Shown: in pieces, positions 1,232-28,625 of the stretch
Layout of the letters: each line of letters opens with the position of its first letter
How positions within the stretch are numbered: position 1 is the stretch's first letter
Origin: Pleomorphomonas koreensis DSM 23070
GTDB taxonomy: Bacteria; Pseudomonadota; Alphaproteobacteria; Rhizobiales; Pleomorphomonadaceae
Direction: 5' to 3'
Assembly: GCF_000425185.1 (NCBI RefSeq)
Contig: NZ_AULH01000005.1
Span: 307,477 to 339,476 of the forward strand
DNA length: 32,000 bases
Made by a program: the position numbers and the translations under genes
The notes under the pieces: generated by a model
Database searches by the model: none
What the model was told of the DNA's origin: nothing
Seen by the model: only the letters and a program-made list of their open reading frames with translations

Positions 1232-1276
1232 CTCCGAAGGCAGAGGTCACAGGTTCGAATCCTGTCGGGTGCGCCA
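1232..1276 (+). tRNA. 3' portion (anticodon loop to CCA) of a tRNA-Arg(CCG) gene; 5' half missing, so an att-type remnant rather than a functional tRNA
   Basis: Anticodon loop ctccgaa 1232-1238 (U33, CCG, A37); stem strand ggcag; variable loop aggtc; T-arm acagg/ttcgaat/cctgt 1249-1265; acceptor cgggtgc; G73; CCA 1274-1276. The complementary strands ctgcc and gcacccg are not found upstream (1150-1231). Confidence 0.75.
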
Positions 1277-8527: not shown

Positions 8528-8529
8528 GG

Positions 8530-8796
8530 TCAGCGCGCCTCGCTGCGGTCACGGCCGAGGAAGCGGTCGCGGGATTGCGCCCATGCGGCGAGGCAGCCGG
8601 CGTCACTTGCCGCTGCCTCGCCGAGCTGCTGGCAACGGCGCAGGCTGTCGCGCAGGGGATCGGGCGGCGGCTGGAGGGCCGAGGCCGGGAGCGGCGCGGA
8701 AGGTTCATCCTTCCGCGCCATGTCGATTGCTGTCGCCGTGACGGCGATAGCGATGAACACAACGGCCGCAAGCCGCGCCAGCATCTTGCCGTCCAT
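8530..8796 (-). CDS. Small exported protein in the TrbK-alt (putative entry exclusion) position
   Basis: 88 aa with an N-terminal hydrophobic segment (LARLAAVVFIAIAVTATAI) and GGGAGG before ATG 8796. Located between trbJ and trbL. Confidence 0.6.
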   Translation of the reverse strand: MDGKMLARLAAVVFIAIAVTATAIDMARKDEPSAPLPASALQPPPDPLRDSLRRCQQLGEAAASDAGCLAAWAQSRDRFLGRDRSEAR

Positions 8797-8810
8797 GGCG
8801 AGCCTCCCGG

Positions 8811-9587
8811 TCAGTTGTTGCCGTTGTTGAACATCTGCGCGTTGCCCGGCTGGTAGCCGGTGCCGGGTGTCAGGAACCGCTCACGCTGGATGCGGCCCTG
8901 TTCGGCGGCAGTCGCGCGCTCGGCCTCGGTCAGCGCGTCGGCGCGGCCGTTCGCCGAGATGACCGCGATCAGGTCGGAAAGCTGTTGCGACTGGAGGGCG
9001 AGAAGCTGGTTGCCGGCCTGCGTCGCCTGCAATGCCCCGGTCGCGCCCTGACTCTGGCCGACAAGCGCGGCCATCTCGGCGCGGTTGGTGTCGATATTGC
9101 CGACCGCTCCCGCCTGCACGCGCATCGCGTCCTGCAACCCGCCGACCGTTTTTTCCCACCGGCTGCGCGCATCGGCGACCAGTTGGGCGTCAGTCGCCGA
9201 AAGCGAAACATTGCCATATTGCTTCTGGAACGCTTGGTCGATCTGGCCGACCTCGAAGGCGATGTTCTGTGCCTGCCCGAGAAGCTGCTGCGTGCGCTGG
9301 ACGCTCTGCTGGAGCTGCTGGAGCGACGAATACGGCAGGCTCGCAAGGTTGCGGGCCTGATTGATGAGCATCTGCGCCTCGTTCTGGAGGCTCTGAATCT
9401 GGTTGTTGATCTGCTCCAGCGTGCGCGCAGCGGTAAGCAGGTTTTGCGCATAGTTGGTCGGGTCATAGACGATCCGGCCGAAACCGAATTGCGCATGGGC
9501 CGGGCTTGCCAGCATGGGCGAAAGCGCGACAGGCACGGCGAGCGCCAGCGCGAGGGCCGAGGCCCCGACGATCTTGGGATAGGTCAT
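8811..9587 (-). CDS. trbJ: P-type conjugative transfer protein TrbJ (VirB5-like)
   Basis: Internal ATG 9587 (MTYPKIVGASALALALAVPVALSPMLASPAHAQFGFGRIVYDPTNYAQNLL...) overlaps the trbE stop as ATGA. Signal peptide followed by coiled coil. Confidence 0.9.
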   Translation of the reverse strand: MTYPKIVGASALALALAVPVALSPMLASPAHAQFGFGRIVYDPTNYAQNLLTAARTLEQINNQIQSLQNEAQMLINQARNLASLPYSSLQQLQQSVQRTQQLLGQAQNIAFEVGQIDQAFQKQYGNVSLSATDAQLVADARSRWEKTVGGLQDAMRVQAGAVGNIDTNRAEMAALVGQSQGATGALQATQAGNQLLALQSQQLSDLIAVISANGRADALTEAERATAAEQGRIQRERFLTPGTGYQPGNAQMFNNGNN

Positions 9588-12076: not shown

Positions 12077-12086
12077 GGCCGCACCC

Positions 12087-12368
12087 TCACACCGCCAGGA
12101 AAGCCGGGATGCGCAGATGCCTCCGCCCGACCTCGACGAACTGGGGATCGCGTTTCGCCGCCCATACGGCCGCGAAATGGCCGATGGCCCATATGGCGAT
12201 GCCGACCAGCCAGAGGCGCAGGCCGAGGCCCACAGCACCGGCAAGCGTTCCGTTCATGATGGCGATGGAGCGCGGTGCGCCGCCGAGCAGGATATGTTCG
12301 GTCAGCGCCCGGTGGACCGGGATTGAAAATCCCGGCACCGCGTCGAGTTGTTCAAGGCCGCCTGCCAT
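12087..12368 (-). CDS. trbD: Conjugal transfer protein TrbD (VirB3-like)
   Basis: 93 aa from ATG 12368 (MAGGLEQLDAVPGFSIPVHRALTEHILLGGAPR...), one membrane hairpin. Sits between trbC and trbE. Confidence 0.8.
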   Translation of the reverse strand: MAGGLEQLDAVPGFSIPVHRALTEHILLGGAPRSIAIMNGTLAGAVGLGLRLWLVGIAIWAIGHFAAVWAAKRDPQFVEVGRRHLRIPAFLAV

Positions 12369-12700
12369 CAGATGAGCGCCCCACCGCCGAACGAGAAGAA
12401 CGACAGGAAGAAGCTCGACGCCGCGAAGGCGATGGACAGGCCGAACACGATCTGGATCAGCTTGCGAAAACCGCCGCCTGTATCGCCGAAGGCCAAAGTC
12501 AGGCCGGTCACGATGATGATGATGACGGCGATGATCTTGGCGACCGGCCCCTCGATGGACTGGAGGATGCTTTGGAGCGGTGCTTCCCACGGCATCGACG
12601 AACCGGATGCATGGGCGGCCGGGGCGAGCATGAAGCTGATGGCAAGGGTGGATGCGGCGGTCGCGGCGACGCGATAGCCGCGCGAAATCATGCGGATCAT
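12368..12700 (-). CDS. trbC: TrbC/VirB2-family pilin precursor
   Basis: 110 aa with a signal peptide ending AHA and two hydrophobic helices. ATGA overlap with the trbB stop. Confidence 0.85.
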   Translation of the reverse strand: MIRMISRGYRVAATAASTLAISFMLAPAAHASGSSMPWEAPLQSILQSIEGPVAKIIAVIIIIVTGLTLAFGDTGGGFRKLIQIVFGLSIAFAASSFFLSFFSFGGGALI

Positions 12701-13680
12701 GAAGATTCTCCTGTGCTGGTTTGGATTGCGGTGGTGATGCGGTAGTCGCCGTCCGGGCCGAGACCTTCGACGCGGGCGAGTTCGGCCAGCCGGCGCGCGG
12801 AACCGCGCCCGGAAAGGACGGCAACAAGGTCGATAGTCTCCGCGATCAGGGCGCGCGGAACCGTGACGACAGCCTCCTGGATGAGCTGTTCAAGACGACG
12901 AAGCGCGCCGATGCCGGTGCCTGCATGGATGGTTCCGATCCCGCCGGGATGGCCGGTGCCCCACGCTTTGAGAAGGTCGAGGGCTTCGGAACCGCGCACC
13001 TCGCCGATGGGGATTCGGTCGGGGCGCAGGCGCAGCGAGGAACGGACCAGATCGGAAAGCGTCGCCACGCCGTCTTTCGTCCGCAAAGCGACAAGGTTGG
13101 GCGCGGCGCATTGCGGCTCGCGCGTATCCTCGATGATGACGACGCGATCCGCCGTCTTCGCCACCTCGGCGAGCAGCGCATTGGTCAGCGTGGTCTTGCC
13201 GGTCGAGGTGCCGCCTGCCACCAAGATATTGGCGCGGGACTGGACAGCGGCGCGCAGCGTATCTGCCTGATCGGCAGACATGGTGCCCGCCGCCACGTAG
13301 TCGTCGAGCGTGAACACCGCGACGGCGGGCTTGCGGATGGCGAAGGCCGGCGCGGCGACCACGGGCGGCAACAGGCCCTCGAACCGCTCCCCGCTCTCGG
13401 GCAGCTCGGCCGAGACGCGGGGGCTGCGGGCATGAACCTCTGCGCCGACATGATGCGCGACTAGCCGAACGATGCGTTCGCCATCGGCGGCGGACAGCCG
13501 CTCGCCCGTGTCGGACAGTCCTTCGGATAGCCGGTCCACCCAAAGGCGGCCGTCCGGGTTTAGCATCACCTCGACCACGGCCGGGTCTTCGAGCAACCGG
13601 GCGATTGCGGGGCCGAGCGCGGTGCGCAACATGCGCGCGCCGCGCGCAATCGCTTCCGGTTTTTGGTGGTTGGTGATCAT
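12697..13680 (-). CDS. trbB: P-type conjugative transfer ATPase TrbB (VirB11-like)
   Basis: 327 aa. Walker [10 protein letters not shown]; MLRTALGP...[16 protein letters not shown]-terminus typical of TrbB. Confidence 0.92.
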
Positions 13681-14309: not shown

Positions 14310-14807
14310 ATGCTGATCCGCAACGAAACGGTCGGTGACATTCCGGCTATTCGCCGCGTCGTCACCGACGCTCTCAAGATGCTTGCTCAATCCACAGGAA
14401 CTGAAGCCAAGATCGTCGACAAGCTGAGGGACGATGACGCGCTCATCCTCTCGCTGGTCGCTGAGGATGAAGGCGAGGTCATCGGCTATCTGGCCGCTTC
14501 AGCGGCACGGGTCGGGACGCAAGACGGATGGGGTCTGATCGGTCCGCTCGCCGTTCTGCCTTCAAGGCATCGTCAAGGTATCGGGTCGGCCCTGATGGGA
14601 GAAGCCGTTCGCCGACTGCGGGCGTCAAGCAGGGGCACGGCGCTGGTAGGCGACCCCGCCTATTACAGCCGGTTCGGCTTCCGGGCTTTCCCCGGTCTGG
14701 GTGTAGCTGGCTGCCCTCCCGAAGTAGTCCAAGCTTTGCCGTTCGATGGCATTGAGCCTCAAGGAGAACTGATCCATCATCCCGCATTCGGTCTGGATCA
14801 GCAGTAA
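14310..14807 (+). CDS. yjhQ: GNAT-family N-acetyltransferase, YjhQ-like cognate antitoxin
   Basis: 165 aa. Acetyl-CoA motif RHRQGIGSALMGEAVRRL. AAGGA RBS before ATG 14310, 12 nt after the yjhX stop. Confidence 0.7.
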   Translation: MLIRNETVGDIPAIRRVVTDALKMLAQSTGTEAKIVDKLRDDDALILSLVAEDEGEVIGYLAASAARVGTQDGWGLIGPLAVLPSRHRQGIGSALMGEAVRRLRASSRGTALVGDPAYYSRFGFRAFPGLGVAGCPPEVVQALPFDGIEPQGELIHHPAFGLDQQ

Positions 14808-14868: not shown

Positions 14869-15333
14869 CTAAAGCTGATTTTTGCTAGCATCGGCAATTT
14901 CAGGTTGTGGTTGGTCACTGCGAAACAACTCTGCGTCGCGTGATAGTTCTTTGAGGAACCTGTCACCGGTCGCCAACCGCCGGCCGAGGGTCTGCATAAA
15001 TCCCTCGAAGCGCTCCGCCCCTTTCGCACGGGCGGCGGATTGTGCGGCTCCCGTAAGCGGCGGCGTGAGGGTCATCCAGAAATGGATGAACTGCGCGACC
15101 GTCTCGCCGAGGACGGCGAGATCTAGGTCGAGCGTGTCGATCTGGCGGCCGAGTTTATCCAAGCGGCGCGACATGGCAGCTTCAAGCTGGTCGTCGGTAT
15201 CGCCGGACAGGTAGGACATGACCGCCGCCTCCACGATGGCGGATTTCGAGACATTGCGGCGCAGCGCCATCGCCTCGATCTGCGGAATGAGCGCGGGGTC
15301 GAAATAGAGATTCAGGCGGGTTCTGGTTGCCAT
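14869..15333 (-). CDS. CopG/ribbon-helix-helix family regulator (conserved between traG and trbB)
   Basis: ATG 15333 preceded by GAGGA. MATRTRLNLYFDPALIPQIEAMALRRNVSKSAIVEAAV... is RHH-like. The track start at 15363 would overlap traG by 20 nt. Confidence 0.8.
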   Translation of the reverse strand: MATRTRLNLYFDPALIPQIEAMALRRNVSKSAIVEAAVMSYLSGDTDDQLEAAMSRRLDKLGRQIDTLDLDLAVLGETVAQFIHFWMTLTPPLTGAAQSAARAKGAERFEGFMQTLGRRLATGDRFLKELSRDAELFRSDQPQPEIADASKNQL

Positions 15334-15343
15334 GAGCGTATCC

Positions 15344-17332
15344 TCAAAGTTCGATTCCGTCATCGGGGTTCAATGCCACCTGCCGCGCGACCATCCTCAT
15401 GCGCTGGCGCATGGCGCGGGCTTTGGCCGCGTCAACGTCCGGCTCGTCGTCCAGAAACTCGAACTCCTGTTCGGGCGATGGCGGCGGGGCGACGATTTCC
15501 TCTTGGCTTGGCAATTCCGGCTCGCGGCGGATGCCGGCATTGGCCGGATCGCCCTCGGCCCCGTCTGCGGCGGCCGGCGCGGAACGGCTTTCCGCCGCGA
15601 CCACGCGGCCGGACCAGTCATCGGCGGATGGGCTGGGCGCCAGCGGAGCGGCGACCAGATCGGGCGGAGTCAGGATGCGTTCCTGAAACCGCGCATCCTC
15701 GAAATAGCGGGCCTTGGTGGCGCGGATCGGCGGCGTGCCGGCGACCATGACGATTTCATCGGTGGGCGGAAGCTGCATGATTTCGCCCGGCGTGAGTAGC
15801 GGCCGGGCCGTCTCCTGCCGCGACACCATCAAATGCCCTAGCCATGGCGCAAGGCGATGGCCGGCGTAGTTTGTGGAATCGCGCAGCTCGGTCGCGGTGC
15901 CGAGCGCGTCGCTCACCCGCTTGGCCGTCCGCTCGTCATTCGTGGCGAAGCTGACGCGGACGTGGCAGTTGTCGAGGATAGCGTTGTTCGGCCCATAGGC
16001 GCGCTCGATCTGATTGAGGCTCTGCGCGATCAGGAAGCCCTTGAGGCCGTAGCCCGCCATGAACGCCAGGGCGCTCTCGAAGAAGTCGAGCCGGCCGAGG
16101 GCGGGAAACTCGTCCAACATGAGTAGGAGGCGATGGCGCTTGCCGGAGGTGTGCAATTCCTCGGTCAACCGCCTCCCGATCTGGTTGAGGATCAGGCGGA
16201 TAAGCGGCTTGGTGCGGTTTATGTCGGATGGCGGCACGACAAGGTAGAGCGTGACGGGCTGGCGGCTGTCGACCAGATCGGCAATGCGCCAGTCGCAACG
16301 TGCGGTGACGCGCGCCACCACGGGATCGCGGTAAAGGCCGAGAAACGACATGGCGGTGCTCAATACGCCCGACCGTTCATTCTCGGATTTGTTCAACAGC
16401 TCGCGGGCCGACGATGCGATGACGGGATGAACACCGGCCTCGCCGAGATGCGGCGTATCCATCATGGCGCGCAAGGTCGCCTCGACCGGGCGGCGCGGAT
16501 CGGACAGGAAGTTGGCGACGCCCGCCAGCGTCTTGTCCTTCTCCGCATAGAGAACATGCAGGATCGCGCCGACCAGAAGCGAATGAGAGGTCTTTTCCCA
16601 ATGGTTGCGCTTGTCGAGACTGCCTTCGGGATCGACCAGAATATCCGCGATATTCTGCACATCCCTGACCTCCCATTCCCCTTGCCGGACCTCCAGCAGC
16701 GGGTTGTAGGCGGACGATCTGGCATTGGTCGGATCGAACAGCAAGACCCGGCCATGCCTCGCGCGAAAGCCCGCTGTCAGCGTCCAGTTTTCCCCTTTTA
16801 TGTCGTGGACGATAGCGGATGCCGGCCATGTCAGCAGCGTCGGCACCACCAGCCCGACGCCTTTGCCGCTGCGCGTCGGGGCGAAGCATAGGACATGCTC
16901 GGGACCGTCATGGCGCAGATAGTCCCGGCCGTATCGGCCGAGCAGGACGCCATCGGGGCCGAGCAATCCGGCCGCGCGGATTTCTCGGTCCTCTGCCCAT
17001 CGCGCTGAACCGTAGGTGGCGACGTTGCGCGCCTCCCGTGCCCGGATGATCGACATGAGGATGGCGGCGGCGATGGCAAGAAAGCCGCCCGATACGGCGA
17101 TGATGCCGCCCTCGACGAAGATCGCGGGCGCATAGGCGTCGAATGAAAACCACCACCAGAAGAAGGCCGGCGGGTAGTAGATCGGCAGGCTCGCCAGCTC
17201 GAACCATGGATTGCCAAGCTGGGGCTGGAAGCCGAGGCGGAACGCTACCCATTGCGTCGCCGCCCACGTCATCACCAGAACGATGGTGAAGACTACGGCG
17301 ATTTGACCCCAAAGGATTCGGCCTCCGCGCAA
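15344..17332 (-). CDS. traG: Type IV coupling protein TraG (VirD4-like)
   Basis: 662 aa. N-terminal TM segments; Walker A APTRSGKG; LLMLDEF Walker B. The start codon is TTG 17332, preceded by GGAG; there is no in-frame ATG before the conserved ILWGQ. Confidence 0.92.
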   Translation of the reverse strand: MRGGRILWGQIAVVFTIVLVMTWAATQWVAFRLGFQPQLGNPWFELASLPIYYPPAFFWWWFSFDAYAPAIFVEGGIIAVSGGFLAIAAAILMSIIRAREARNVATYGSARWAEDREIRAAGLLGPDGVLLGRYGRDYLRHDGPEHVLCFAPTRSGKGVGLVVPTLLTWPASAIVHDIKGENWTLTAGFRARHGRVLLFDPTNARSSAYNPLLEVRQGEWEVRDVQNIADILVDPEGSLDKRNHWEKTSHSLLVGAILHVLYAEKDKTLAGVANFLSDPRRPVEATLRAMMDTPHLGEAGVHPVIASSARELLNKSENERSGVLSTAMSFLGLYRDPVVARVTARCDWRIADLVDSRQPVTLYLVVPPSDINRTKPLIRLILNQIGRRLTEELHTSGKRHRLLLMLDEFPALGRLDFFESALAFMAGYGLKGFLIAQSLNQIERAYGPNNAILDNCHVRVSFATNDERTAKRVSDALGTATELRDSTNYAGHRLAPWLGHLMVSRQETARPLLTPGEIMQLPPTDEIVMVAGTPPIRATKARYFEDARFQERILTPPDLVAAPLAPSPSADDWSGRVVAAESRSAPAAADGAEGDPANAGIRREPELPSQEEIVAPPPSPEQEFEFLDDEPDVDAAKARAMRQRMRMVARQVALNPDDGIEL

Positions 17333-17515: not shown

Positions 17516-18406
17516 TCAATTCGCTCGGACCAGCCGCCCCATGTCATTTGCAAGCGTCAGCAGATTGCGCAACGTCGCGCTGCGATTGAACGGCGACCAG
17601 ACAGCCGAGAAGGCAACAGGCTCCGGCTCATCGGCGAAGGGCAAGAAAACGATGCCGGTCGTCGGCAGACGTGCCGTAGCCTCGCCGACGATGGTGATGC
17701 CAAACCCCTGTCCGACCATGGACAGCAGAGTGCCACGCTCGACGTCGAAGCGCAGGATCGACGGCGTAGGCCAGCGCCCGGCATGACGTAGCACGATATG
17801 ATTATGAACCTGCGGGCCAGTGCCACCATGTCGAACAAGAAACGTCTCGCCCGCAAGTTCGGCCCATGTGACGACCGATTGCCCGGCGAGCGGATGCCGC
17901 TCCGGTAGCACCACCACAAGCGGTTCGGTCCATATGCAACGGGAATGGCAGTCGGGGAGTTCGGGCGTGCCCGCGACGAACGCCACGTCCAGCCGGTCGG
18001 CGCGAAGCTGCATGACCGCTTCGCGAGCCGTGCTCTCCGTGATTTCCACTTCGATGCCGGGATGAGCCTCCCGATACTGCGCGATCAGATCGGCAAGGAA
18101 GCTGCCGTAGATCAGGGCATGGATACCGATGCGAATCCGGCCGCTTTCTCCGGCTGCCGCCATGCCAGCCGTCTTCACCGCATGGTCGAGTTGATCGACT
18201 CCCGCCGCTATCCGCTCTACGAAGTGACGTCCGGCCTCCGTTAGTCGGACGCCCCGAGCATGGCGCTCGAAAAGAAGGATGCCAAGGTCTTCCTCTAGCG
18301 CTTTCACTCGTGCGCTGACACTGGATTGTGCGACGCCTAGCACTTTAGCCGCGTGACGGAAGTTCAAGAATTCAGCAACAGCTAAAGTCTGAATCAATGA
18401 CACCAT
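17516..18406 (-). CDS. LysR-family transcriptional regulator (TraR-like position)
   Basis: HTH LNFRHAAKVLGVAQSSVSARVKALEEDLG plus a substrate-binding domain. ATG 18406 preferred; an alternative upstream start exists at 18469. Confidence 0.88.
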   Translation of the reverse strand: MVSLIQTLAVAEFLNFRHAAKVLGVAQSSVSARVKALEEDLGILLFERHARGVRLTEAGRHFVERIAAGVDQLDHAVKTAGMAAAGESGRIRIGIHALIYGSFLADLIAQYREAHPGIEVEITESTAREAVMQLRADRLDVAFVAGTPELPDCHSRCIWTEPLVVVLPERHPLAGQSVVTWAELAGETFLVRHGGTGPQVHNHIVLRHAGRWPTPSILRFDVERGTLLSMVGQGFGITIVGEATARLPTTGIVFLPFADEPEPVAFSAVWSPFNRSATLRNLLTLANDMGRLVRAN

Positions 18407-18887
18407 TGGGATTCGCAACCCGAGGGGAGTTTTCCACTCTTGGCGGGCATCTGTCCTAGAGCGCCGCATGATGGTGCTCCGACAGATAAGAAAAAGTCGA
18501 ACTGGCTGAAATGACGTTGGCGACTAGCGCCCAAGCCAATCGCGCGGATCGAATGGCAAAATGGCGGTTTAGGTAGGCGGTGAACTGGCCTGAATAGATG
18601 CGTCCGCCCCGCAACGAGGCGTGCAGCATACGCTGCGTATTTTCTGGATTTTGCATTGGAGAAGCCTTGCAAGCGTCGCAATAACTTGCCGCATCCGCAA
18701 TCGCTTATCCGATCACGGACTCAAACCGACAAGCACGAAGCCGCTCACTGTCAGCGCGAACGGCTAGCGACGTGCCACAATCTCCAACACAAGCCTCTCC
18801 ATCGTAGGTGGAGAAAGGATAGACATCGGCGTGCCTCGTCGTCAACGCTGGAGAATTTGATTGCGATACAACCGAGGCGGGTTTGAT

Positions 18888-20942
18888 TCACAAACCAAGA
18901 CCTCTGGTTTTGCCGATCTGCCATGACACCGATCCGCCCTGCACGACGCCCATGACCTCGCGGCCGAGCTGGCGGTCGATAACCGGCCGCCACGGGACAA
19001 GCGTAAACTCGTGGGATTTCTCAACAACGGCGAACTTGCCACTGGATAGCTGCACGGTGCCGGTGAACTTGCCGCTGACGTTCTCGCTATCCGTAGCGGC
19101 ACGGAACGGCAGCCCTTTGCCCTCGGCCATCTCCCGGCCGACGCGGGCAACCTCCCGCTCGCGCAGCGTGGCGAGAAGGCTGCGCCGGTAGAAGATGCGG
19201 CCGTCCCGCGCTCGGCTGGCATCGCCCTGTTCGATATGATGCTCGCGGCGCTGCTCCATCGCCTCGCGCACCTGCTGGCCGAAGCCGGCCGGGACAAGAT
19301 CGGCGGTCTCGCCATGGATCAGCCGCCGGTCGAGCCAGGTCGCGCCGTCCGATCCGATCTGCTTGTTCAGATCGACCGGGGAAAGAACGCGCACGCTGGC
19401 CTGCCGGTCGCGGCCGGCGTCATAGGCGGCAGCCCGGCTCTCGAAATCGTCGGGGATGCGCCATTGGTCGGCGTCGATCCGCTCGACGATCCCGGCGCGG
19501 CGCAATGCCTCCAGCCGGCGGACATGAGCATCGACATAACCCTCATAGTCGCCGCCGGGAACGCGCCCCTCAAACTTGGCCTGCTCCAGATGACGACTCG
19601 GCCGATAGATGCCGTCCTCCGCGATGGCCGTGATGGTGCGGTCGGACGGCCGGGCCGTCACCTCGGCCGGGCCGATCTGGACGACGCTACCGATGCGGGC
19701 GTCCTCCAGCCGCTCGGGCGCGATGCCGGCGAGGTGGTGCGTCCGCCCGTCGATCCCGTCCACCACGATTGTCAGGTTCTCCCCTAGCTCGTCGGACAGG
19801 TGCTTGTCCACGACGCGGCCGACGATGGGCGTCTCGGGCGCTCCGTCATGGATTTGAAAGCTCATGAGATCGCGTTCGCCACCGTGCGCGCCGAGCGCCT
19901 TCTGCATGATGCGGATAATGTCGCCACGCTCGCCCAACTCGCGCAGGGCCGGCTCCATGTCCTTGCTCAATTCCCAAACGCCGGGCGCGTGCGCGGTCGC
20001 CAGCCCCATCTTCTCCAGCTTGGCGAGACGGCGAAGGCGCAGGGTCCGCTCGAACTGCCGCCTCGGCGCTGCCGGTTCATGGCGAAGGTCGAGGAAACGG
20101 GCATCGGCTTCGTCGGCCATGGCGCGGTCGATCCGGGTGAAACGGTCTTGGTCGATCTCGGCCGACAGCTTGCGGGTCTGCTCGATCTCGGTCACGGGGC
20201 CGAGTTCGAGACTGGCAAGCTCGCTGGCCCGCTCGCGCAGGCCAGCGGAAAGATAGTCGCCGTTGATGACTAGATCCCCGCCCGTGTCGTCGCGGCCGTT
20301 GACGATGATATGCACATGGGGATGGCCGGTGTTGTAGTGATTGACGGCGACCCAATCGAGTTTGGTGCCGAGGTCGGCTTCCACCTGCTTCATGAAATCG
20401 CGGGTGTAGGCCGTGAGGTCCGACAGCTCCACGCCGTCCTCGGGCGAGACGATGAATCTGAATTGGTGGCGGTCGTCCTTGCCGCGATCAAGGAAGGCGT
20501 CGCCATCGGCGCGGTCCTCGGTCGCCGAATAGAGCCGGCCGCGCTCGCCGTCGCGTGACGTGCCGTCGCGTTGGACATAGCGTAGATGCGCGCGGGCGCG
20601 ACCGCCCTTCCACGCGGCCCGGACGCTGCGCTGCTTGACGATGACGCGGCGACTGCCCGGCTGGCGATGATGCCAGTTGCCCGAGATATTGCGGGCACGC
20701 ACGAAGCTCGCGCCCCGGCCGCGCTTCACGCCCTTGCCGCTGGCGACCACGGCACGGGACCGGCCCGGCGATGACGGGCGGGCGGATGATGGCATGGAAG
20801 GATCGCGTGAGGCTGCCGCCTGATGCTGCCGGGTGATCTTTCTGACCTGCGTGAAAAAGCTCTTGGTCTTGCCAGCCTTCGGCGTGTCGGATCGGATGCG
20901 GCCGGGCTTCGGACGGAAGCGGTTTTCGTCGTCGGCGCTCAA
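18888..20942 (-). CDS. Relaxase/mobilisation nuclease with DUF3363-type C-terminal domain
   Basis: 684 aa. N-terminal DDENRFRPKPGRIRS; histidine triad NTGHPHVHIIVNG. The start is TTG 20942 with GGAG 8 nt upstream. Confidence 0.9.
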   Translation of the reverse strand: MSADDENRFRPKPGRIRSDTPKAGKTKSFFTQVRKITRQHQAAASRDPSMPSSARPSSPGRSRAVVASGKGVKRGRGASFVRARNISGNWHHRQPGSRRVIVKQRSVRAAWKGGRARAHLRYVQRDGTSRDGERGRLYSATEDRADGDAFLDRGKDDRHQFRFIVSPEDGVELSDLTAYTRDFMKQVEADLGTKLDWVAVNHYNTGHPHVHIIVNGRDDTGGDLVINGDYLSAGLRERASELASLELGPVTEIEQTRKLSAEIDQDRFTRIDRAMADEADARFLDLRHEPAAPRRQFERTLRLRRLAKLEKMGLATAHAPGVWELSKDMEPALRELGERGDIIRIMQKALGAHGGERDLMSFQIHDGAPETPIVGRVVDKHLSDELGENLTIVVDGIDGRTHHLAGIAPERLEDARIGSVVQIGPAEVTARPSDRTITAIAEDGIYRPSRHLEQAKFEGRVPGGDYEGYVDAHVRRLEALRRAGIVERIDADQWRIPDDFESRAAAYDAGRDRQASVRVLSPVDLNKQIGSDGATWLDRRLIHGETADLVPAGFGQQVREAMEQRREHHIEQGDASRARDGRIFYRRSLLATLREREVARVGREMAEGKGLPFRAATDSENVSGKFTGTVQLSSGKFAVVEKSHEFTLVPWRPVIDRQLGREVMGVVQGGSVSWQIGKTRGLGL

Positions 20943-21259
20943 GGGCGCGGCTCCGGCCCAAATCGCCGGAAAACGGCCGATCTGCGCCTATGGTGCCGCT
21001 CGAAACCCAGCAAAGCCAAGGCTTTGCGCAAAATCGCGGCACGCGGCCCCTCAAAACCATGGTGCCGGAACCGGCGACCTAACCAGTGTGCAGACAACAA
21101 CAATTTCCAGAAGCGGCCCGATATGGTGCCGTCTTCTTTAATCTTGCCCTCCGCCCTTTCTGTCTTTTCTGCCCCTCCTGCCGGGAATCCAGCCGGGCGC
21201 AAACCTGCCCGACCGGATGTCGAAACCAGCGCCGCCGAGCCCGGGAACGCCGCCCTCAT
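20939..21259 (-). CDS. Doubtful 106-aa basic ORF that exactly fills the transglycosylase-relaxase gap
   Basis: ATGA overlap with the upstream stop (21256-21259) and TTGA overlap with the relaxase start (20939-20942) favour a real gene. Against it: GC3 is only ~66% by my count, with many rare codons (TTG x7, AGG, AGA, ATA, TTA), and the ORF contains the 9-mer repeats. Confidence 0.3.
   Translation of the reverse strand: MRAAFPGSAALVSTSGRAGLRPAGFPAGGAEKTERAEGKIKEDGTISGRFWKLLLSAHWLGRRFRHHGFEGPRAAILRKALALLGFERHHRRRSAVFRRFGPEPRP
20990..21131. repeat. Three direct copies of ATGGTGCCG plus an 8-bp inverted repeat; candidate oriT/regulatory region
   Basis: Copies at 20990-20998, 21059-21067 and 21123-21131. 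Inverted repeat gcaaagcc aa ggctttgc at 21010-27. Confidence 0.5.
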
Positions 21260-22191
21260 GGCGTTCCCCCGTCGCTGGCGCTCGCCACGAAAATAATGCT
21301 GCCGTCCTGCGGCTCCGCACGGGCTGGGTCGCGCGCTGGAACGGCAGCGCGCCCGTCGCCGGATTGCACCTCGGACGGCGGCGCGGCGGCAGCTTGCGTG
21401 TCGGCCAGGCGCATGACGAATAGTGGTGCCTCGCGCCAGTCGGGCGGCGGTGCCGGTGGTTGCAACGGCGCATCCGATGGAGCCGCGCCGCCAAGGATTG
21501 GGGCGAGCGCGGCGACATAGGCGCGTGTCTCGGCGGGAAGGGGGCGGCCCGTCGCGCGGTGCTCGTCGTAGCGGCCGGGGCCGGCGTTATAGGCCGCAAG
21601 CATCGCGCCGACATTGCCGTAGCGGTCGAACATCTCGCGCAGATAGGCCGTGCCTGCGAGGATGTTGTCGCGCGGGTCGTAGGGATCGCGGCCGAGGCCA
21701 TGGCGGACGCGCAGGCCCGCCCATGTGTCGGGCATTACCTGCATCAATCCCATCGCTCCGGCCGACGAAACCGCCCGCACGTCGCCCGCGCTTTCGGCGC
21801 GCAGCACGGCGCGAATCCAGTGCTCGGGGATGCCGAAACGCTGCGACGCCTCGGCGATGTGCGCCGCATAGGGATGGGCGGCGGCCGGGCGCTCGACCGG
21901 GACGGATTGCGCGACAGCGACGCCCGATCCGATACAGACGGAAAGCGCCCCGGCCAGCAGCAGGACGGCGTAATGCCATGCCGGCCTGTCTCCGCTTCGC
22001 CGCCAGCCTGCCAGCGTGCTCGCTGCGGTCAAGGGCAAGGCGCAAGCGCCGGCCGATGGCCGCCCCTGACCTTCGCTGCGCGCGCCGGTCGTCTGGTCGC
22101 CGAGCGGGACGAAGGGATGAGACGGCTTTTCCGCGAACAAAGGGATGCCGATCTTTGACCGGATGGCGGGCCGGACGCGTGCGGCCTTCAT
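21256..22191 (-). CDS. Lytic transglycosylase (SLT domain, VirB1-like)
   Basis: 311 aa. SLT motifs AVLRAESAG...GAMGLMQVMP...AYNAGPGRY. ATG 22191 overlaps the DUF736 stop as ATGA. Pro/Ala-rich C-terminus. Confidence 0.88.
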   Translation of the reverse strand: MKAARVRPAIRSKIGIPLFAEKPSHPFVPLGDQTTGARSEGQGRPSAGACALPLTAASTLAGWRRSGDRPAWHYAVLLLAGALSVCIGSGVAVAQSVPVERPAAAHPYAAHIAEASQRFGIPEHWIRAVLRAESAGDVRAVSSAGAMGLMQVMPDTWAGLRVRHGLGRDPYDPRDNILAGTAYLREMFDRYGNVGAMLAAYNAGPGRYDEHRATGRPLPAETRAYVAALAPILGGAAPSDAPLQPPAPPPDWREAPLFVMRLADTQAAAAPPSEVQSGDGRAAVPARDPARAEPQDGSIIFVASASDGGTP

Positions 22192-22558: not shown

Positions 22559-23104
22559 TCAGTGCGTCGGCGCGCGCCACTCGTAGCGGCCGACGCCTTC
22601 CTCATCGGTCCAGAGCGGGACCGCCCGGCCGATGACGGAAGCTGCGGGGATGGGTCCGAAATACCGGCCGTCGAGGCTGTCGCGGACTTCCCAATTCATG
22701 AGGAAAAGCTGGCCGTCGTCGATGACGCGGCAGCCCTGCCAGACGGGCAGATCGCGGCCGAGGCTGTCGCGCTCCAGCGCCTCGCCCATCTCGATCCCGT
22801 CAACCGTGATCGTGCGGCCGGCGCGGCAAACCCGCTGTCGGGGCAGGCCCAAGACGCGCTTCAAGAGCGGGACGCCGCGCGCTATATAGCCGCGCTCGAC
22901 CATGAAGGCGGCGAGCGGTTCGGGCGGCATCACGGCGACCAGTTCGGGCACGTCGATCCGGTCTGCCGGCTCGACGGTGTAGAAGCCGACTGGCGCGCTG
23001 GCGGTGGCGTTCCATATGAGTTTCGTCGGCGTCTCGACCGCGCTTGCGGCGGCGATGCCGAGCACCACCAGCGCCGTGATCGTAAGGGTGCGGCGGCGCG
23101 TCAT
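22559..23104 (-). CDS. traF: S26-family conjugative signal peptidase TraF
   Basis: Internal ATG 23104 (MTRRRTLTITALVVLGIAAAS...) overlaps the upstream stop as ATGA. ...NATASAPVGFY...DSLDGRYFGPIP. Confidence 0.85.
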   Translation of the reverse strand: MTRRRTLTITALVVLGIAAASAVETPTKLIWNATASAPVGFYTVEPADRIDVPELVAVMPPEPLAAFMVERGYIARGVPLLKRVLGLPRQRVCRAGRTITVDGIEMGEALERDSLGRDLPVWQGCRVIDDGQLFLMNWEVRDSLDGRYFGPIPAASVIGRAVPLWTDEEGVGRYEWRAPTH

Positions 23105-23619
23105 GGGTCGATCCTTCGGCGATGAAGCCACACGGCATGTCGCTCGGGCGTGTAGGCGTGCGCCTCCAGATTGGCGGTCAAACGGTTGTGGACGTGTCGC
23201 CAATGCTCCGGTGAGGCATCGGCCGGATCGAGGCCGAGCGATTCCACGGCGTCGATGGCGGCAAGCGCGCGCTGCACCTTGGGCCAGCTATCGAGGCGCA
23301 ACAGGATTTCGCCGCCGGGGCGCACGAAGGGCAATGTCTGGAACGGCTCGCCCCGGCCGATGGCGCGCACAATGTCGATGCGCGAAACGACAGTGCCGTG
23401 CTCGCCCTTCGCCCATCGCACGAAGGCAAAGACGCTGCCCGGCGCGAAGCCGACGACACTCCGGCGACGATCGATGATCTGCTCGTAGCTCTTGCGGCCG
23501 AAGCGTATCCAGTGCTCGACCTTGCGTTTCTCGAAGGTCAGCTCAACCAATGTGGTGAAGGGCGCAGGCCCGTCCGGCAGCGGACGGCCGTGCGCGCTGC
23601 GGTGAGCGCGACGGGTCAT
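23101..23619 (-). CDS. DUF2840 family protein
   Basis: Internal ATG 23619 preceded by GGAG. ...TLVELTFEKRKVEHWIRFG... Position upstream of traF, as in related ICEs (from memory). Confidence 0.7.
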   Translation of the reverse strand: MTRRAHRSAHGRPLPDGPAPFTTLVELTFEKRKVEHWIRFGRKSYEQIIDRRRSVVGFAPGSVFAFVRWAKGEHGTVVSRIDIVRAIGRGEPFQTLPFVRPGGEILLRLDSWPKVQRALAAIDAVESLGLDPADASPEHWRHVHNRLTANLEAHAYTPERHAVWLHRRRIDP

Positions 23620-23677
23620 TGTTCGTCTCCGGTGATGTGCTGGGGGCTGCGCGGACGCAGCGCGTTGGGCGCGGCCG

Positions 23678-24754
23678 TCATGGCTCGCCCCTTCGGGCTG
23701 AACCGGCACCACGCTTCGCCCGCGCGCGCGTCAAAGAAAAAGAGTTAGATTCTCTGTTAGATAAGTTAACGGTCGGATTCCGCTTTTTAGGCCAAAGCGT
23801 TAGCTGCGGTTCATGCGCCTGATCTGCCGATAGTGGTGCGCCTGATGTGCCGATACCCCGTGCGCCTGATCTGCCGATGGCATTAACAGGGTTATCAACA
23901 GTGCCTGTTGACAGGTTTTCGGGGCGGATGCGCAGCAGCTCGCGGCCGTCTTCCCGCTCGGTCTGGAGCAGGTAGCCGGGGAGCTGCTGGCGGGCTGCGA
24001 TCCGGCGCAGGTCGAGCGCGAAGTCGGACGGCCGCGCGAGGCTGCCGGATTTCTGGTGAAGATGCGCGACCTCGAAAATCCAGCCGTGGCGCTGGTGCCC
24101 GGCGTGCTTTCTGGCGACGCGGTAAAGCCATCGCTCGATGCCGTCAGTCAGCCGGAAATAGGCCGGGTCGATGGTCAGGACCAGCGAACGGTCGATGACG
24201 CTGTTGTAGAACCATTCGGGCAGGACGAACTCCATGCCCTCGACGCGGCCGGCGCGCGTCGTCATTTCCTCCCACTCGTTGATCCATGAGAATTGCCGGC
24301 GACGCCAATGCGGGCCGTTGCGGATGGTGGTGGCGATGACGGTCGATTGCAGCCGCGCCAGCGCGGCTTTCAGAAGCCGGTATTGATGATTGCCGGTCGG
24401 CCGCCCGATGGCGCGCAACAGATGGTAAGGCGTAAACCGGACAAAGCGCGACGTGGTGAGGCCGTTGTTCTCGGCCGCGACGATCTGCGAGGCCGCCCAT
24501 ATCAGCACATCGGCATCCCAAATGGTCGCCATGCCGTGTTCGGGCATCCCGAACACCTGCACCTCTATGTCGGCGGCCTTGTAGAGAATCGGCTTGGTGC
24601 GCGGGGTCTTCGCCAGCGAGAAAAACGGCCGTTCCATCAAATCGCGCTGGTCGCGCGGCGGCGCGTCGCCCGTTGCGACCACGAAGGGGTCTAGGCGGCT
24701 GCGCTCGCTGTCCTCGGCCGGCTGCTCGGGGTCGTGATCGTCCTCGCGCAGCAT
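23678..24754 (-). CDS. repA: Replication initiator protein A (RepA/RPA family) with an atypical C-terminal tail translated through iterons
   Basis: 358 aa. ...ERPFFSLAKTPRTKPILYKA...MATIWDADVLIWAASQIV...IERWLYRVARKHAG... The last ~75 codons read through the repeats and the AT-rich block at 23740-23900. Confidence 0.8.
   Translation of the reverse strand: MLREDDHDPEQPAEDSERSRLDPFVVATGDAPPRDQRDLMERPFFSLAKTPRTKPILYKAADIEVQVFGMPEHGMATIWDADVLIWAASQIVAAENNGLTTSRFVRFTPYHLLRAIGRPTGNHQYRLLKAALARLQSTVIATTIRNGPHWRRRQFSWINEWEEMTTRAGRVEGMEFVLPEWFYNSVIDRSLVLTIDPAYFRLTDGIERWLYRVARKHAGHQRHGWIFEVAHLHQKSGSLARPSDFALDLRRIAARQQLPGYLLQTEREDGRELLRIRPENLSTGTVDNPVNAIGRSGARGIGTSGAPLSADQAHEPQLTLWPKKRNPTVNLSNRESNSFSLTRARAKRGAGSARRGEP
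23814..23879. repeat. Three 19-bp iteron-like direct repeats (period 23-24 bp)
   Basis: tgcgcctgatctgccgata 23814-23832; tgcgcctgatgtgccgata 23837-23855; tgcgcctgatctgccgatg 23861-23879. Flanked by an AT-rich stretch (23735-23800) and the inverted repeat tcaacag tgc ctgttga (~23895-23911). Confidence 0.8.
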
Positions 24755-25024
24755 CTAGCAGTCGCCTCGTTCTTTGGGCGTGAGCGGACGCGCGGGAAAG
24801 ACGGTGCCGGCGGTTTTATCGCGGGTGGATTTGCGCTCGCCCGCCGCGCTCCAGTCTTCCAGATCGCGGACGGTGTAGAGGACGCGACCGCCGACTTTGC
24901 GATAGGTCGGCCCGGTGCCATAGGTGCGATGCTTCTCAAGGGTGCGGATGGATATGCCGAGGAAGCGCGCGGCTTCCTTGGTGCGCAACAGGCGCGGCGG
25001 CAGGCCCGCAAGTGGGTTGGGCAT
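24755..25024 (-). CDS. Small MerR/AlpA-type HTH protein (excisionase-family DNA-binding domain), first gene of the repA-traF-relaxase operon
   Basis: 89 aa: ...LLRTKEAARFLGISIRTLEKHRTYGTGPTYRKVGGRVLYTVRDLEDW... GGAGG before ATG 25024. The stop abuts the repA ATG. Confidence 0.8.
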   Translation of the reverse strand: MPNPLAGLPPRLLRTKEAARFLGISIRTLEKHRTYGTGPTYRKVGGRVLYTVRDLEDWSAAGERKSTRDKTAGTVFPARPLTPKERGDC

Positions 25025-25073
25025 GGATCACCTCCAGTCTGGATTGGGCTGCCGGGGGCGGCAGCGGACTGTG

Positions 25074-25141
25074 GCGAACCATGGCGAGGGATCGGCGGCG
25101 CGTAGCGTGCCGCATTTGCGCCTATGCGCTGGCGGCACCCC
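25074..25141 (-). promoter_or_regulatory. Conserved ~68-bp element, copy B (see 4017-4084), upstream of the HTH-repA operon
   Basis: Same orientation and spacing as copy A. Followed, towards the gene, by a non-homologous hairpin (25048-25065), just as copy A is followed by hairpin 3988-4012. Confidence 0.6.
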
Positions 25142-25480
25142 CTTCGGGGGCGGTGCGCGGCCAATAGATGAGGGATTTCAGCGGCTCATTGCCTGCTGCG
25201 CCGAAAAGCCAGAGACATTCCCACGCGGTTCAGTTAAGAATCGCAGTGGAGCAGACGCGCTGCTCTGGGGCGTAGTAACCCCTCACGAATGGCCGGTGCC
25301 AGCCAGAACGGCACCAACTCCTTGACCTATGGTCGGGGAGCCTGTGGCGTATACAACAGGCTTTCCGAGCTAAAGGCCATGGGGCCGTTTCGTGACGGTT
25401 ACTAACTCCCCGATCACCAAGAGTCAGAGAGAATCGTTTGCGGGGGCGCACCGCAGACAAAGCTCTCTCGGATACGGGGA

Positions 25481-25774
25481 ATGACTATGCGGGTTCCCGT
25501 CCAACTCGATCCAGATGTGGACGATGAAGCGCCGACCGGCGACACCATAACCGTCTATGACGAACGGCATTACGTCACCTATCTGCGTTTGCTGGATGCG
25601 AAGGCCGAGGGCGCGGACTGGAAGGAAGTCGCGCGGATCGTGCTGCACCGTGATCCGGTCGCTGAGGAACTGCTGACCCGCCGTTGCTGGCAAAGCCATC
25701 TCGAACGCGCGCAATGGCTATCGCGTGAAGGCTATCGGAAGATTCTGGAGCAGGCGGCAGCCAATAGGGCGTGA
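25481..25774 (+). CDS. Stand-alone DUF2285-like small protein (QseM-like candidate antiactivator)
   Basis: 97 aa (or 95 from ATG 25487). ...YVTYLRLLDAKAEGADWKEVARIVLHRDP...WQSHLERAQWLSREGYRKIL parallels the C-terminal domain of the neighbouring gene (LSLRALDARLRAESYRTIAEVLLG...GGYRLLL). 18 acidic vs 14 basic residues. Confidence 0.65.
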   Translation: MTMRVPVQLDPDVDDEAPTGDTITVYDERHYVTYLRLLDAKAEGADWKEVARIVLHRDPVAEELLTRRCWQSHLERAQWLSREGYRKILEQAAANRA

Positions 25775-25792: not shown

Positions 25793-26576
25793 TCAACGCT
25801 TGTCGGGCTTGATCGGATAGTGGAGCAGAAGGCGATAGCCCCCGCGCATCATCTTGATGCCGTGCGCGACCAGGCGGCGGGCTTTGTTCTTGCGCGGATC
25901 GCTCTCGAAATCCTCCTTCGTGCCGCGAAAGCCGAGCAGGACTTCCGCGATGGTGCGATAGCTCTCGGCGCGCAGCCGGGCGTCGAGCGCGCGCAGCGAC
26001 AGGATATGCCATTGCCGGAGTTGGGCGGGAACGGCCCGGAAATCGGGACCGGGCGCGCGACCATTGAGGGATCGCCAGAAACGGCGGACAGCGTGAGCGC
26101 GTAGCTCCAGAAAAGCATCCATCGGCAGCGTGACGGCGTAAAACGCGGCGGCGTCCGGCACCGCCTCGGGCAGCCAGAATTGATGTTTGACGCCATCCAC
26201 CTGCCAGATACCGTGCCAGCCATCGGCAGCGCGGTGCAGGTCGAGGCCGTCGAGGTGCGCCAACGTCAATATCGGTTCGGTGTCGTCGTCCTTGTGATCG
26301 ACCGGAGACAACATCACGGCTTGCGGTTGAAGGCGCGGACTCCAGATCGGCGATTGCCGATCATGCGGCGCGTCGGGATCGCACGGGAAATCGCAAACCC
26401 CAGCGAGCCGCGAACGTTTCCAGGTCGCGGCCGTTCGGTCCTTCAGCCAACGCCATGGTACGAAACTCCCGGCGATATTCGTCGTTGCGGCGCAGGTATT
26501 CCCAAGCGAAACCAGCGGCAGGGATGTGCTTTGTGTGCCCGTATGCCGCCGGAGATCGCCAATCGATGCTGAGCAT
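25793..26576 (-). CDS. DUF6499 + DUF2285 (FseA-like) transfer activator gene split between two frames; needs a +1 shift near 26388-26390
   Basis: Frame A runs 26576->26361 (MLSIDWRSPAAYGHTKHIPAAGFAWEYLRRNDEYRREF...ARWGLRFPVRSRRAA*). Frame B (+1) continues ...FPCDPDAPHDRQSPIW... to the stop at 25793. The joined product is 260 aa. Confidence 0.7.
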
Positions 26577-26650: not shown

Positions 26651-26680
26651 AGCCGCTCAAAGCAGATACCTTGAGCGGCT
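26651..26680 (-). terminator. Hairpin downstream of ardA
   Basis: Arms agccgctcaa (26651-26660) / ttgagcggct (26671-26680), a 10-bp stem. On the minus strand it is followed by tctatatttcc. Confidence 0.45.
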
Positions 26681-26770: not shown

Positions 26771-27298
26771 TCATCTGCTGGAAAATACATGCACCTCGCC
26801 GTGTGCCGTCTCTATGGTGAACAAGTCACCGCTCATAGCTGCGTCGCGAGCCATCGCCTGCCAATCGACATAGTAGCGCAGCGCCTCGGGAATCGTGACG
26901 CTCTCGGTGGTCAATTCCTCCAAGTAGTCGGCGAGGCTCTCGAACTGACCATGATAACAGTCCTGCAAGGCGGTTTCGGCTTGGTCCATGCCGCCGACGA
27001 ACTGCTCCAGCAAGCCCGCACCAAGTGTGCCATGCTCTGCGATGAAAGCGCCCATACGTGCCACACTGTCGATGCCGGCATATTCGGAGACGCTAACGCC
27101 CTCGAAACCTTCATAGTCGTGGATGGCGTATTCCTCTGCGTGCTCGATGGGAGACCGTGCGAGCATAGCCGCAATCTCGTCCCTGATCTCGTCGGCATCC
27201 TGATCCGCGTCGATCCAAGCCCCATGCAAATAGCCATTATTGTAGGCGGCAAGGCAGGCGACATAGATGCGGGGATTGCTGTCGGATATGTTTGTCAT
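26771..27298 (-). CDS. ardA: Antirestriction protein ArdA (DNA mimic, anti type I R-M)
   Basis: 175 aa, very acidic. RIYVACLAAYNNGYLHGAWIDADQD...AIHDYEGFEG...YVDWQAMARD...HVF matches the ArdA family pattern. Confidence 0.88.
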   Translation of the reverse strand: MTNISDSNPRIYVACLAAYNNGYLHGAWIDADQDADEIRDEIAAMLARSPIEHAEEYAIHDYEGFEGVSVSEYAGIDSVARMGAFIAEHGTLGAGLLEQFVGGMDQAETALQDCYHGQFESLADYLEELTTESVTIPEALRYYVDWQAMARDAAMSGDLFTIETAHGEVHVFSSR

Positions 27299-27703: not shown

Positions 27704-27752
27704 TTGACATCCGAACTATGTGTATATAAACTATACCCATAAGGTTTATATA
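27704..27752 (+). promoter_or_regulatory. Sigma70-type promoter with an overlapping operator-like inverted repeat, in front of the WYL regulator
   Basis: TTGACA 27704-27709, 17-nt spacer, TAAACT 27727-27732. Perfect 9-bp inverted repeat tatataaac 27723-27731 / gtttatata 27744-27752. Confidence 0.6.
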
Positions 27753-27770
27753 TGGAAATCGGAGACAGTC

Positions 27771-28625
27771 GTGCGTTGGGGTGTGGAAAAGCGCTTAGAG
27801 TTCATCGAGTTCCGCCTTTTCTGGGAAGGCGGGATTAATCGCGCTGATATTATCGACCACTTCGGCGTGTCCGTTCCCCAAGCCTCAAAGGATCTCACGC
27901 TTTACGAAGAAAAGGCACCCGGAAACCTGCTCTATGACAAGAGCGCAAAGAGGTACATGGCGTCGCCGCATTTCAAGCCGGTTTTTCTCGAACCGCACGC
28001 CGATATGTATCTCGCGCAGCTGCAAACAGAGCCGTTAACCGGAATTATTGAAGACAGCTGGCTTGCTGCCGTTCCGGCGTTTGACATGATGCCGGTGCCC
28101 CACCGAAGCGTGCGTGTCGATGTCCTTCGCAAGCTTGTGGGCGCGATCCGTAGCCGCCGGGCTCTCAAGATCAAATACCAGTCGATGAACACAAGGCGCC
28201 CTGACCCCGAGTGGAGGTCGATTTCTCCGCATGCCTTTGGGCATGACGGACTGCGGTGGCATGTCCGTGCGTTCTGCCATATCGACCGGAAGTTCAAGGA
28301 CTTCATTCTTTCCCGCTGCCTTGATTCAGGCGACGTCGAAGAAGCCCTCGCGACAGCTAGTTCCGACCGCTTGTGGCACGAGTTTTTCGATGTCGTACTG
28401 ACTGCAAATCCTGCCCTTAGTGATAGCCAGCGTGCGGTTATTGAGCAGGACTACGAAATGGTGGGGGGCACCGTGACCGTCCCCGTTCGGAAGGCATTGC
28501 TCTACTATTTTCAGAAGCGGTTGCGATTGGATATTGCCGACAAGGTAGATCGGCCACAGGAAATCCCCGTGGTGGTCAGCAATGCGTCCGAATTCGCCTC
28601 GGCATTAGCGGAGGCGACTGCATGA
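27771..28625 (+). CDS. WYL-domain transcriptional regulator (wHTH + WYL + C-terminal domain), BrxR/CapW-like
   Basis: GTG 27771 with GGAGA 6 nt upstream; the track ATG 27720 lies inside the promoter. VRWGVEKRLEFIEFRLFWEGGINRADIIDHFGVSVPQASKDLTLYEE...ISPHAFGHDGLRWHVRAFCH... Confidence 0.8.
   Translation: MRWGVEKRLEFIEFRLFWEGGINRADIIDHFGVSVPQASKDLTLYEEKAPGNLLYDKSAKRYMASPHFKPVFLEPHADMYLAQLQTEPLTGIIEDSWLAAVPAFDMMPVPHRSVRVDVLRKLVGAIRSRRALKIKYQSMNTRRPDPEWRSISPHAFGHDGLRWHVRAFCHIDRKFKDFILSRCLDSGDVEEALATASSDRLWHEFFDVVLTANPALSDSQRAVIEQDYEMVGGTVTVPVRKALLYYFQKRLRLDIADKVDRPQEIPVVVSNASEFASALAEATA

Follow-up and report, generated by a model that had tools for sequence, protein, structure and literature searches.

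Within the window, by which we mean the whole 32,000-nt stretch of DNA that was analysed, the minus strand carries two overlapping reading frames that each encode one half of a DUF6499-DUF2285 protein (Table 1). The first, ORF A, runs from an ATG at 26576 to a TGA at 26363-26361 and encodes 71 aa ending in ...FAARWGLRFPVRSRRAA*. Its residues 5-64 match the full-length Pfam profile PF20109 (DUF6499 / Trans_reg_dom; profile positions 1-60 of 60, E 1.3e-24), and an AWEYLRRN motif, which resembles the AWEFLRRN helix, is found at residues 24-31. The frame offset by +1 from ORF A is open throughout the region, has its stop side at 25793 and reads ...CDFPCDPDAPHDRQSPIW... When frame A is translated up to the UUU codon at 26390-26388, C 26387 is skipped and the +1 frame is read onward, a 260-aa protein is obtained, with ...ARWGLRF-PCDPDAPHDR... 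across the junction. Residues 150-252 of this fused protein match PF10074 (DUF2285 / RovC_DNA-bd; E 1.3e-28), and its +1-frame part comprises a linker, a middle beta-rich region and a basic DUF2285 helix-turn-helix domain, the net charge of residues 150-260 being +13. An R233-R234 pair, invariant within the clade, is a candidate counterpart of FseA R247/R248. Both halves of one known architecture lie side by side in two frames, an arrangement far too unlikely to have arisen by chance. The two-frame arrangement described in the first-pass annotation was present when ORFs, frames and Pfam domains were checked, and the seamless 260-aa product that it had derived from a UUU to UUC slip was reproduced by translation.

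The putative frameshift cassette opens with a Shine-Dalgarno-like UGGGG (26402-26398) that codes for W59-G60 and ends 7 nt ahead of the slippery UUU, which is immediately preceded by CGA (26393-26391). The C at 26387 would be re-paired as the third base of UUC, and the zero-frame A-site codon after UUU is CCC. The 21 Pfam-supported genes in the window use CGA for 7.4% of their Arg residues, UUU for 19% of Phe and UUG for 13% of Leu. The low share of CGA bears out the earlier expectation that the codon before UUU would be rare. A hairpin proposed by RNAalifold, with the slippery site in its loop, was considered as a stimulatory structure and rejected, as its pairs are all invariant and show no covariation, and the folding z-score, computed on a single sequence, was -0.5.

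Gene neighbourhood and non-coding elements

The fseA gene is convergent with a gene whose 97-aa, DUF2285-only product matches the NMR structure of QseM (PDB 7UQT, E 3.6e-17), and the two are separated by 18 nt from the fseA stop codon. This QseM-like protein is acidic (pI 5.3) and the DUF2285 part of the activator is basic, which corresponds to the published charge dichotomy. Divergent from the qseM-like gene lies a gene for an HTH_17 protein that matches the crystal structure of RdfS (PDB 8DGL, E 4.3e-10) and heads the string repA-DUF2840-traF-SLT-rlxS. By analogy with characterized elements, the activator would be expected to drive transcription of this gene. The backbone identified with Pfam (trbB-I, traG, rlxS, traF, an msi107-like SLT gene and rdfS) is of the ICEMlSymR7A type, and the presence of a replication initiator and DUF2840 between rdfS and traF is known from non-symbiotic Mesorhizobium ICEs and Tn4371-like elements (PMC8627217). 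With its QseM and RdfS homologues and this shared backbone, the element is a relative of ICEMlSymR7A, and the earlier impression of an unrelated-looking ICE was not borne out.

Directly beyond trbI (1247-3567, minus strand), the window encodes a 552-aa serine recombinase (Resolvase + Recombinase + Zn_ribbon_recom) and a winged-helix protein; no tyrosine integrase is visible in the window, despite the RdfS-type excisionase. Towards the other end, between 27700 and 32000, the GC content drops from about 65% to 52-56%, and the WYL-domain regulator gene is followed by about 3.4 kb in which no ORF of at least 150 aa lies wholly inside the window. This is probably a cargo or degraded region.

Table 1. 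Positions of genes and sequence elements in the window
Feature	Position	Strand	Basis
Serine recombinase	1247-2905	-	Pfam
trbI to trbB	4325-13680		Pfam
GNAT acetyltransferase	14310-14807	+	Pfam
CopG-like	14869-15363		Pfam
traG	15344-17332		Pfam
LysR-type regulator	17516-18469		Pfam
Relaxase with DUF3363 (rlxS)	18888-20942		Pfam
SLT transglycosylase (msi107-like)	21256-22191		Pfam
S26 peptidase (traF)	22559-23203		Pfam
DUF2840	23101-23712		Pfam
repA	23678-24754		Pfam
rdfS-like excisionase / recombination directionality factor gene, 89 aa, HTH_17	24755..25024	-	PDB 8DGL
Candidate FseA box GCATAG-N16-CTACGC, 28 bp	25100..25127	-	Inverted hexamer geometry
QseM-like antiactivator gene, 97 aa, DUF2285 only	25481..25774	+	PF10074; PDB 7UQT
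fseA	25793-26576	-	Pfam
+1-frame part (msi171-like), fused residues 64-260	25793..26386	-	PF10074 and synonymous pattern
ORF A (msi172-like), complete DUF6499, zero-frame product	26361..26576	-	PF20109
Putative +1 frameshift cassette U GGG GU UUG CGA UUU C CCG	26384..26402	-	Sequence and conservation
Ribosome-binding site GGGGAGGTGA, 5' of the ORF A start codon	26581..26590	-	Sequence; kept in related loci
13-bp-stem hairpin with T-rich tail, between ardA and fseA	26651..26680	-	Kept in related loci
ardA	26771-27298		Pfam
WYL-domain gene	27720-28625	+	Pfam

The 456-bp region between the divergent rdfS-like and qseM-like genes (25025-25480) contains no plausible ORF and has no Rfam match, as is the case for the window as a whole, in which no Rfam family was found. 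Most of its columns are conserved at 90% or more among 57 unique loci, and it is rich in short inverted repeats, such as GGTGCC-N9-GGCACC and GAGAGA...TCTCTC. It could contain promoters and operators, an oriT-like region or a non-coding RNA. In the published FseA box, two inverted hexamers separated by 15-16 bp lie upstream of rdfS. A candidate box, located at -103 to -76 relative to the rdfS start codon within a nearly invariant stretch, has the same 6+16+6 geometry. A nested inverted repeat, GTGCCGC-N18-GCGGCAC, is located at -114 to -83 from the same start codon, and a conserved GC hairpin, GCTGCCG-CCCC-CGGCAGC, is found on the minus strand at 25054-25071 (about -47 to -30), in the presumed 5' leader.

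Upstream of fseA, the minus strand between 26595 and 26680 contains a terminator-like hairpin followed by a conserved CTTGAAC and then by a second GC hairpin (GCCGGGCGCTG...CAGCGTCCCGGC) directly 5' of the ribosome-binding site, both hairpins being kept in relatives. The first is a candidate for either the ardA terminator or an operator, and the arrangement suggests that expression of fseA may be controlled by read-through or by a structured leader. Scanning for promoters revealed none that resembled a sigma-70 promoter in the vicinity of fseA or rdfS.

Conservation of the split and selection at the junction

To survey related loci, one genome per species (species representatives) was scanned, which yielded 80 loci from more than 35 named genera, mostly Alphaproteobacteria. 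The set also includes Parapusillimonas, a betaproteobacterium, and a few MAGs whose taxonomic labels are odd. When each half was searched separately with tblastn, the +1 offset was found in 77 of 79 loci with both halves present. The junction reads TGG-GGN-YTR-CGA-TTT-CCC in 76 loci and CGA-TTT-TCC in two others (L076 and L077), and ORF A encodes 71 aa in most of the 78 loci in which an out-of-frame junction is kept. The comparison with sister elements that the first-pass annotation had called for thus revealed a conserved split with a nearly invariant slippery site. The outcome that it had named as refuting, closest homologues that are single ORFs differing by one nucleotide, was absent, since the relatives at 84-94% identity are themselves split. 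In-frame variants among the relatives are rare or more distant. One locus (L001) is brought into frame by a different one-nucleotide deletion (TGG GGG TGC GAT TTC, reading WG-CDFP), and another (L015) keeps the site and has a second indel about 40 nt downstream, being probably degenerate or affected by a sequencing error.

Protein databases contain both architectures. In a protein search, 114 of the best 120 matches contained PF10074 only, were 169-305 aa long and covered 63-78% of the fused query, which identifies them as gene calls for ORF B only. An exhaustive search of cluster representatives with the fused protein returned 1099 proteins at E <= 1e-3; the best 150 of these included about 32 full-length single ORFs (29-39% identical), about 18 C-terminal calls whose match begins at query residues 55-66 and about 12 N-terminal calls ending at residues 63-71. 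Single-ORF and split architectures are thus both common, and the cluster-representative search agrees with the published survey (PMC10359603).

Four single-ORF DUF6499-DUF2285 homologues (P0003, P0008, P0009 and P0021), 61-74% identical to the fused protein, align without gaps over the junction, where they read RWGL(R/Q)FP, followed by CDP in P0008 and P0021. The alignment to uninterrupted homologues locates the shift where the predicted product places it, and F63 and P64 are invariant across split and single-ORF homologues. At the nucleotide level, the single-ORF locus L081 reads CGA TTT CCG TGC, that is, the frameshift site minus one C of the CCC run. Two further single-ORF loci (L083 and L084), 61% identical to the query, read TGG TGC TTG CGC TTC CCA; the G-run is gone and the Arg and Phe codons have shifted to common synonyms. 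In L083 and L084, frameshift signals that are no longer required have been lost, and the unusual codons are retained only where translation needs a shift.

Selection at the junction was analysed in 61 unique ungapped sequences with a mean pairwise nucleotide identity of 87%. Up to gene nt 183, the variants, at third positions of frame A, are silent in that frame; from nt 193 onward, it is in frame B that they are silent. The nine intervening positions (nt 184-192, CGATTTCCC) show zero variation. Over the rest of the gene, synonymous variants greatly exceed non-synonymous ones in frame B and the reverse holds for frame A, whereas frame B shows no sign of coding constraint 5' of the junction. 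The CGA (R62) and UUU (F63) codons are invariant in all 61 sequences. A single codon is used in just 7 of the 96 columns with an invariant degenerate amino acid, R62 and F63 being two of the seven, and synonymous drift is seen in each of the other 15 invariant Arg columns. The fixation of R62 and F63 on minor codons, while other Arg columns drift, shows that the site is under selection at the nucleotide level beyond the coding need.

Considering that a tRNA-Phe slip (UUU to UUC) and a tRNA-Pro slip (CCC to CCG) would yield the identical junction peptide RFPCDP, ...WGLRFPCDPDAPHDR..., codon conservation alone can indicate which tRNA slips. At the wobble position of UUU, T is invariant despite the 81% genomic preference for UUC; this is required by a Phe slip only and not by a CCC_N slip, which favours tRNA-Phe. 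The UUU-UCC variant of L076 and L077 is likewise compatible with a Phe slip only. The codon pattern points to tRNA-Phe, in agreement with the assignment for FseA, which is made by a +1 shift of tRNA-Phe from UUU to UUC at a UUUC near the end of msi172 (PMC4755241). In UUU-CCC-N, two codons prone to a +1 shift stand next to each other, and it may be the invariant rare CGA that actually causes the pause; the effect of this CGA could come from slow I:A wobble decoding or be exerted in the E site.

The two halves have diverged to different degrees: identity between loci is 67-92% for the DUF6499 half (residues 1-64) and 88-94% for residues 65-260. Variation in the DUF6499 half is concentrated at residues 31-58, from the AWEYLRRN helix to WGL. 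QseM identity between elements is 86-98% in most loci, compared with 67-92% for the DUF6499 half, and the rdfS-like product is 94-100% identical.

The gene order ardA-fseA-qseM-rdfS-repA is kept in related loci. The qseM-like gene was found in 75 of the 80, the other five either offering hardly any sequence past fseA or carrying a larger insertion there. In many of the loci (L001-L080), an additional 0.5-4.5 kb separates fseA from the convergent qseM, so that this gap is an apparent hot spot for cargo insertion. In a further locus (L085, Haematobacter massiliensis plasmid pOT1-2; locus positions 1-3753), a gene pair for an ATP-dependent endonuclease and a UvrD-helicase lies 5' of ardA and may be Gabija-like defence cargo. 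A possible co-occurrence of frameshift and QseM was also considered, but the sample was too small: the in-frame L001 and the single-ORF L081 have qseM, and L083 and L084 lack it.

Proposed mechanism and alternative explanations

The locus very probably encodes an FseA-family activator of ICE excision and transfer whose full-length form would be produced by a programmed +1 frameshift. The suggestion of the first-pass annotation that the same translational gate operates here as in FseA is supported by the observed anatomy, the conserved split, the invariant site, the frame-specific selection, the homology of the partner genes and the match with the literature. For this element, we infer the slip itself, its efficiency and its regulatory consequences; ICEMlSymR7A is the only element in which the frameshifted full-length product has been shown in vivo (PMC4755241). 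Readings of the locus as a pseudogene, an assembly error or two separate proteins are poorly supported because of the conserved split and site, the frame switch and the occurrence of RWGLRFPCDP in single-ORF relatives; together with transcriptional slippage, they retain a small share of the probability.

The best surviving of them, although very unlikely, is that the 71-aa DUF6499 peptide and a DUF2285 protein translated from an internal start, such as Met88, are two separate proteins acting in trans. Public records do list separate genes, one for a 71-aa 'DUF6499 domain-containing protein' and others for 'DUF2285 domain-containing proteins' that are 169-232 aa long, and the window has an ATG at residue 88 of the fused protein. 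However, the constraint on frame B, absent 5' of the junction, starts right after UUU-C, 24 codons before Met88, and P64, P67, D72, W78, P80 and P84, which all precede this ATG, are invariant in single-ORF and split homologues. At position 88, homologues have L, V, R or T; the start is therefore not conserved, and the annotated start positions are inconsistent. In ICEMlSymR7A, moreover, the active species is the fused polypeptide (PMC4755241).

It is still less probable that a one-nucleotide insertion has inactivated a formerly single-ORF activator. Single-ORF homologues do exist and L015, with its second indel, looks degenerate, but the same extra nucleotide is shared by nearly all loci across many genera, each half is under purifying selection in its own frame, and the site is more conserved than the neighbouring synonymous positions. 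Slippage of RNA polymerase, rather than of the ribosome, at the T3C3 run would restore the frame at the mRNA level and yield a similar protein. The homopolymer runs here are only 3 nt long, however, and transcriptional slippage usually needs runs of roughly 6-9 nt. The invariant rare CGA and the Shine-Dalgarno-like UGGGG suit a ribosomal mechanism, and the FseA literature assigns the shift to tRNA-Phe (PMC4755241), all of which makes polymerase slippage extremely improbable. The chance of an assembly or sequencing indel in the window is negligible: nothing specific speaks for it beyond the short homopolymer context of T3C3, and the identical junction recurs in independent isolate and metagenome assemblies made on different platforms.

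Under programmed frameshifting, most ribosomes would translate ORF A and stop at 26361, releasing the 71-aa DUF6499 peptide, and a presumed minority would pause at UGG-GGU-UUG-CGA-UUU-C. There, the peptidyl-tRNA-Phe would re-pair from UUU to UUC and the ribosome would continue in the msi171-like frame, producing the 260-aa DUF6499-DUF2285 activator. From homology with ICEMlSymR7A, the full-length activator would be expected to bind an inverted repeat 5' of the adjacent rdfS-like gene and to turn on rdfS and the downstream transfer genes, and the convergent QseM-like protein to bind the DUF6499 domain and block activation. The frameshift would thus attenuate expression at the level of translation and hold the activator at a low level.

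If the efficiency here is like that in R7A (4-13%), the free 71-aa DUF6499 peptide, which consists of the domain bound by QseM, would be the main product of the mRNA. A further idea, which we regard as unlikely, is that the frameshift does more than attenuation: in this element, where neither quorum-sensing genes nor qseC are seen, the free peptide could titrate the adjacent QseM-like antiactivator and that this, together with co-translational capture at the pause site, could generate an ultrasensitive ICE switch that depends on the level of transcription.

For annotation, a single recoded gene, fseA, should replace the two ORFs. In public records, they appear as separate 'DUF6499' and 'DUF2285' proteins or one of the two is missing, and the label 'DUF6499 domain-containing protein' is given to the 71-aa ORF in a RefSeq plasmid record. 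Neither the fused protein nor ORF A nor the QseM-like protein matched a model in NCBIfam, and the plasmid search gave partial matches only. The misannotation of split FseA-family genes is routine (PMC10359603).

Comparison with known systems

Both the recoding event and the protein family have been described before, and the published picture is unchanged by the present data, which contain no new biology. Single-ORF and two-ORF variants of FseA are known from many putative ICEs, some of which lack quorum sensing (PMC4755241), and among 4709 curated homologues from Proteobacteria, about 61% are split at a conserved +1 site adjoining the WGL encoded by UGGGGG (PMC10359603). What the present analysis adds is that selection changes reading frame inside a 9-nt window, that fixation of the rare CGA and UUU is confined to split loci and that the frameshift signals have decayed in a single-ORF relative.

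A mechanistic parallel outside this family is prfB (release factor 2) of Escherichia coli, in which a P-site tRNA is likewise re-paired in the +1 direction on YUU-N, with a Shine-Dalgarno-like G-rich element upstream. In prfB, the slow A-site codon is an in-frame UGA stop and the Shine-Dalgarno spacing is 3 nt. Here, by contrast, the zero-frame A-site codon is a sense codon, CCC, and a rare CGA precedes the slippery codon; the spacing of about 7 nt, compared with that of prfB, makes a stimulatory role of the G-run uncertain.

RovC, the activator of type VI secretion in Yersinia (PDB 6XZ5), and the single-ORF FseA homologues share PF10074 and the DUF6499-DUF2285 fold family with the protein studied here (PMC10359603). 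They are encoded in one ORF and need no recoding, unlike the two-frame fseA of the window. A PDB sequence search with the fused protein gave no match, RovC being too distant. An AlphaFold2 model of the fused protein, built from a 25-row alignment, was of low confidence (mean pLDDT 65.5, pTM 0.45), and Foldseek found no PDB match to this model with E <= 0.001.

The nearest known system is FseA of ICEMlSymR7A from Mesorhizobium japonicum R7A, which shares with the present locus the DUF6499 and DUF2285 domains, the AWE(F/Y)LRRN motif and, according to the published description of R7A, a +1 slip at UUU-C just after WGL (UGGGG), where a conserved G-rich region lies upstream and the frameshift efficiency is 4-13% (PMC4755241). 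The QseM and RdfS partners and the trb/traG/rlxS/traF/msi107-type backbone are also common to both elements. In contrast with ICEMlSymR7A, the window shows neither traR/traI quorum-sensing genes nor qseC, fseA is the neighbour of ardA with qseM convergent to it, and repA and DUF2840 are placed between rdfS and traF, as in the non-symbiotic ICEs and Tn4371-like elements (PMC8627217). The locus identifies the window as belonging to a conjugative element that is related to ICEMlSymR7A/Tn4371 and equipped with an FseA-QseM-RdfS control module, a type of element that is widespread over many alphaproteobacterial genera.
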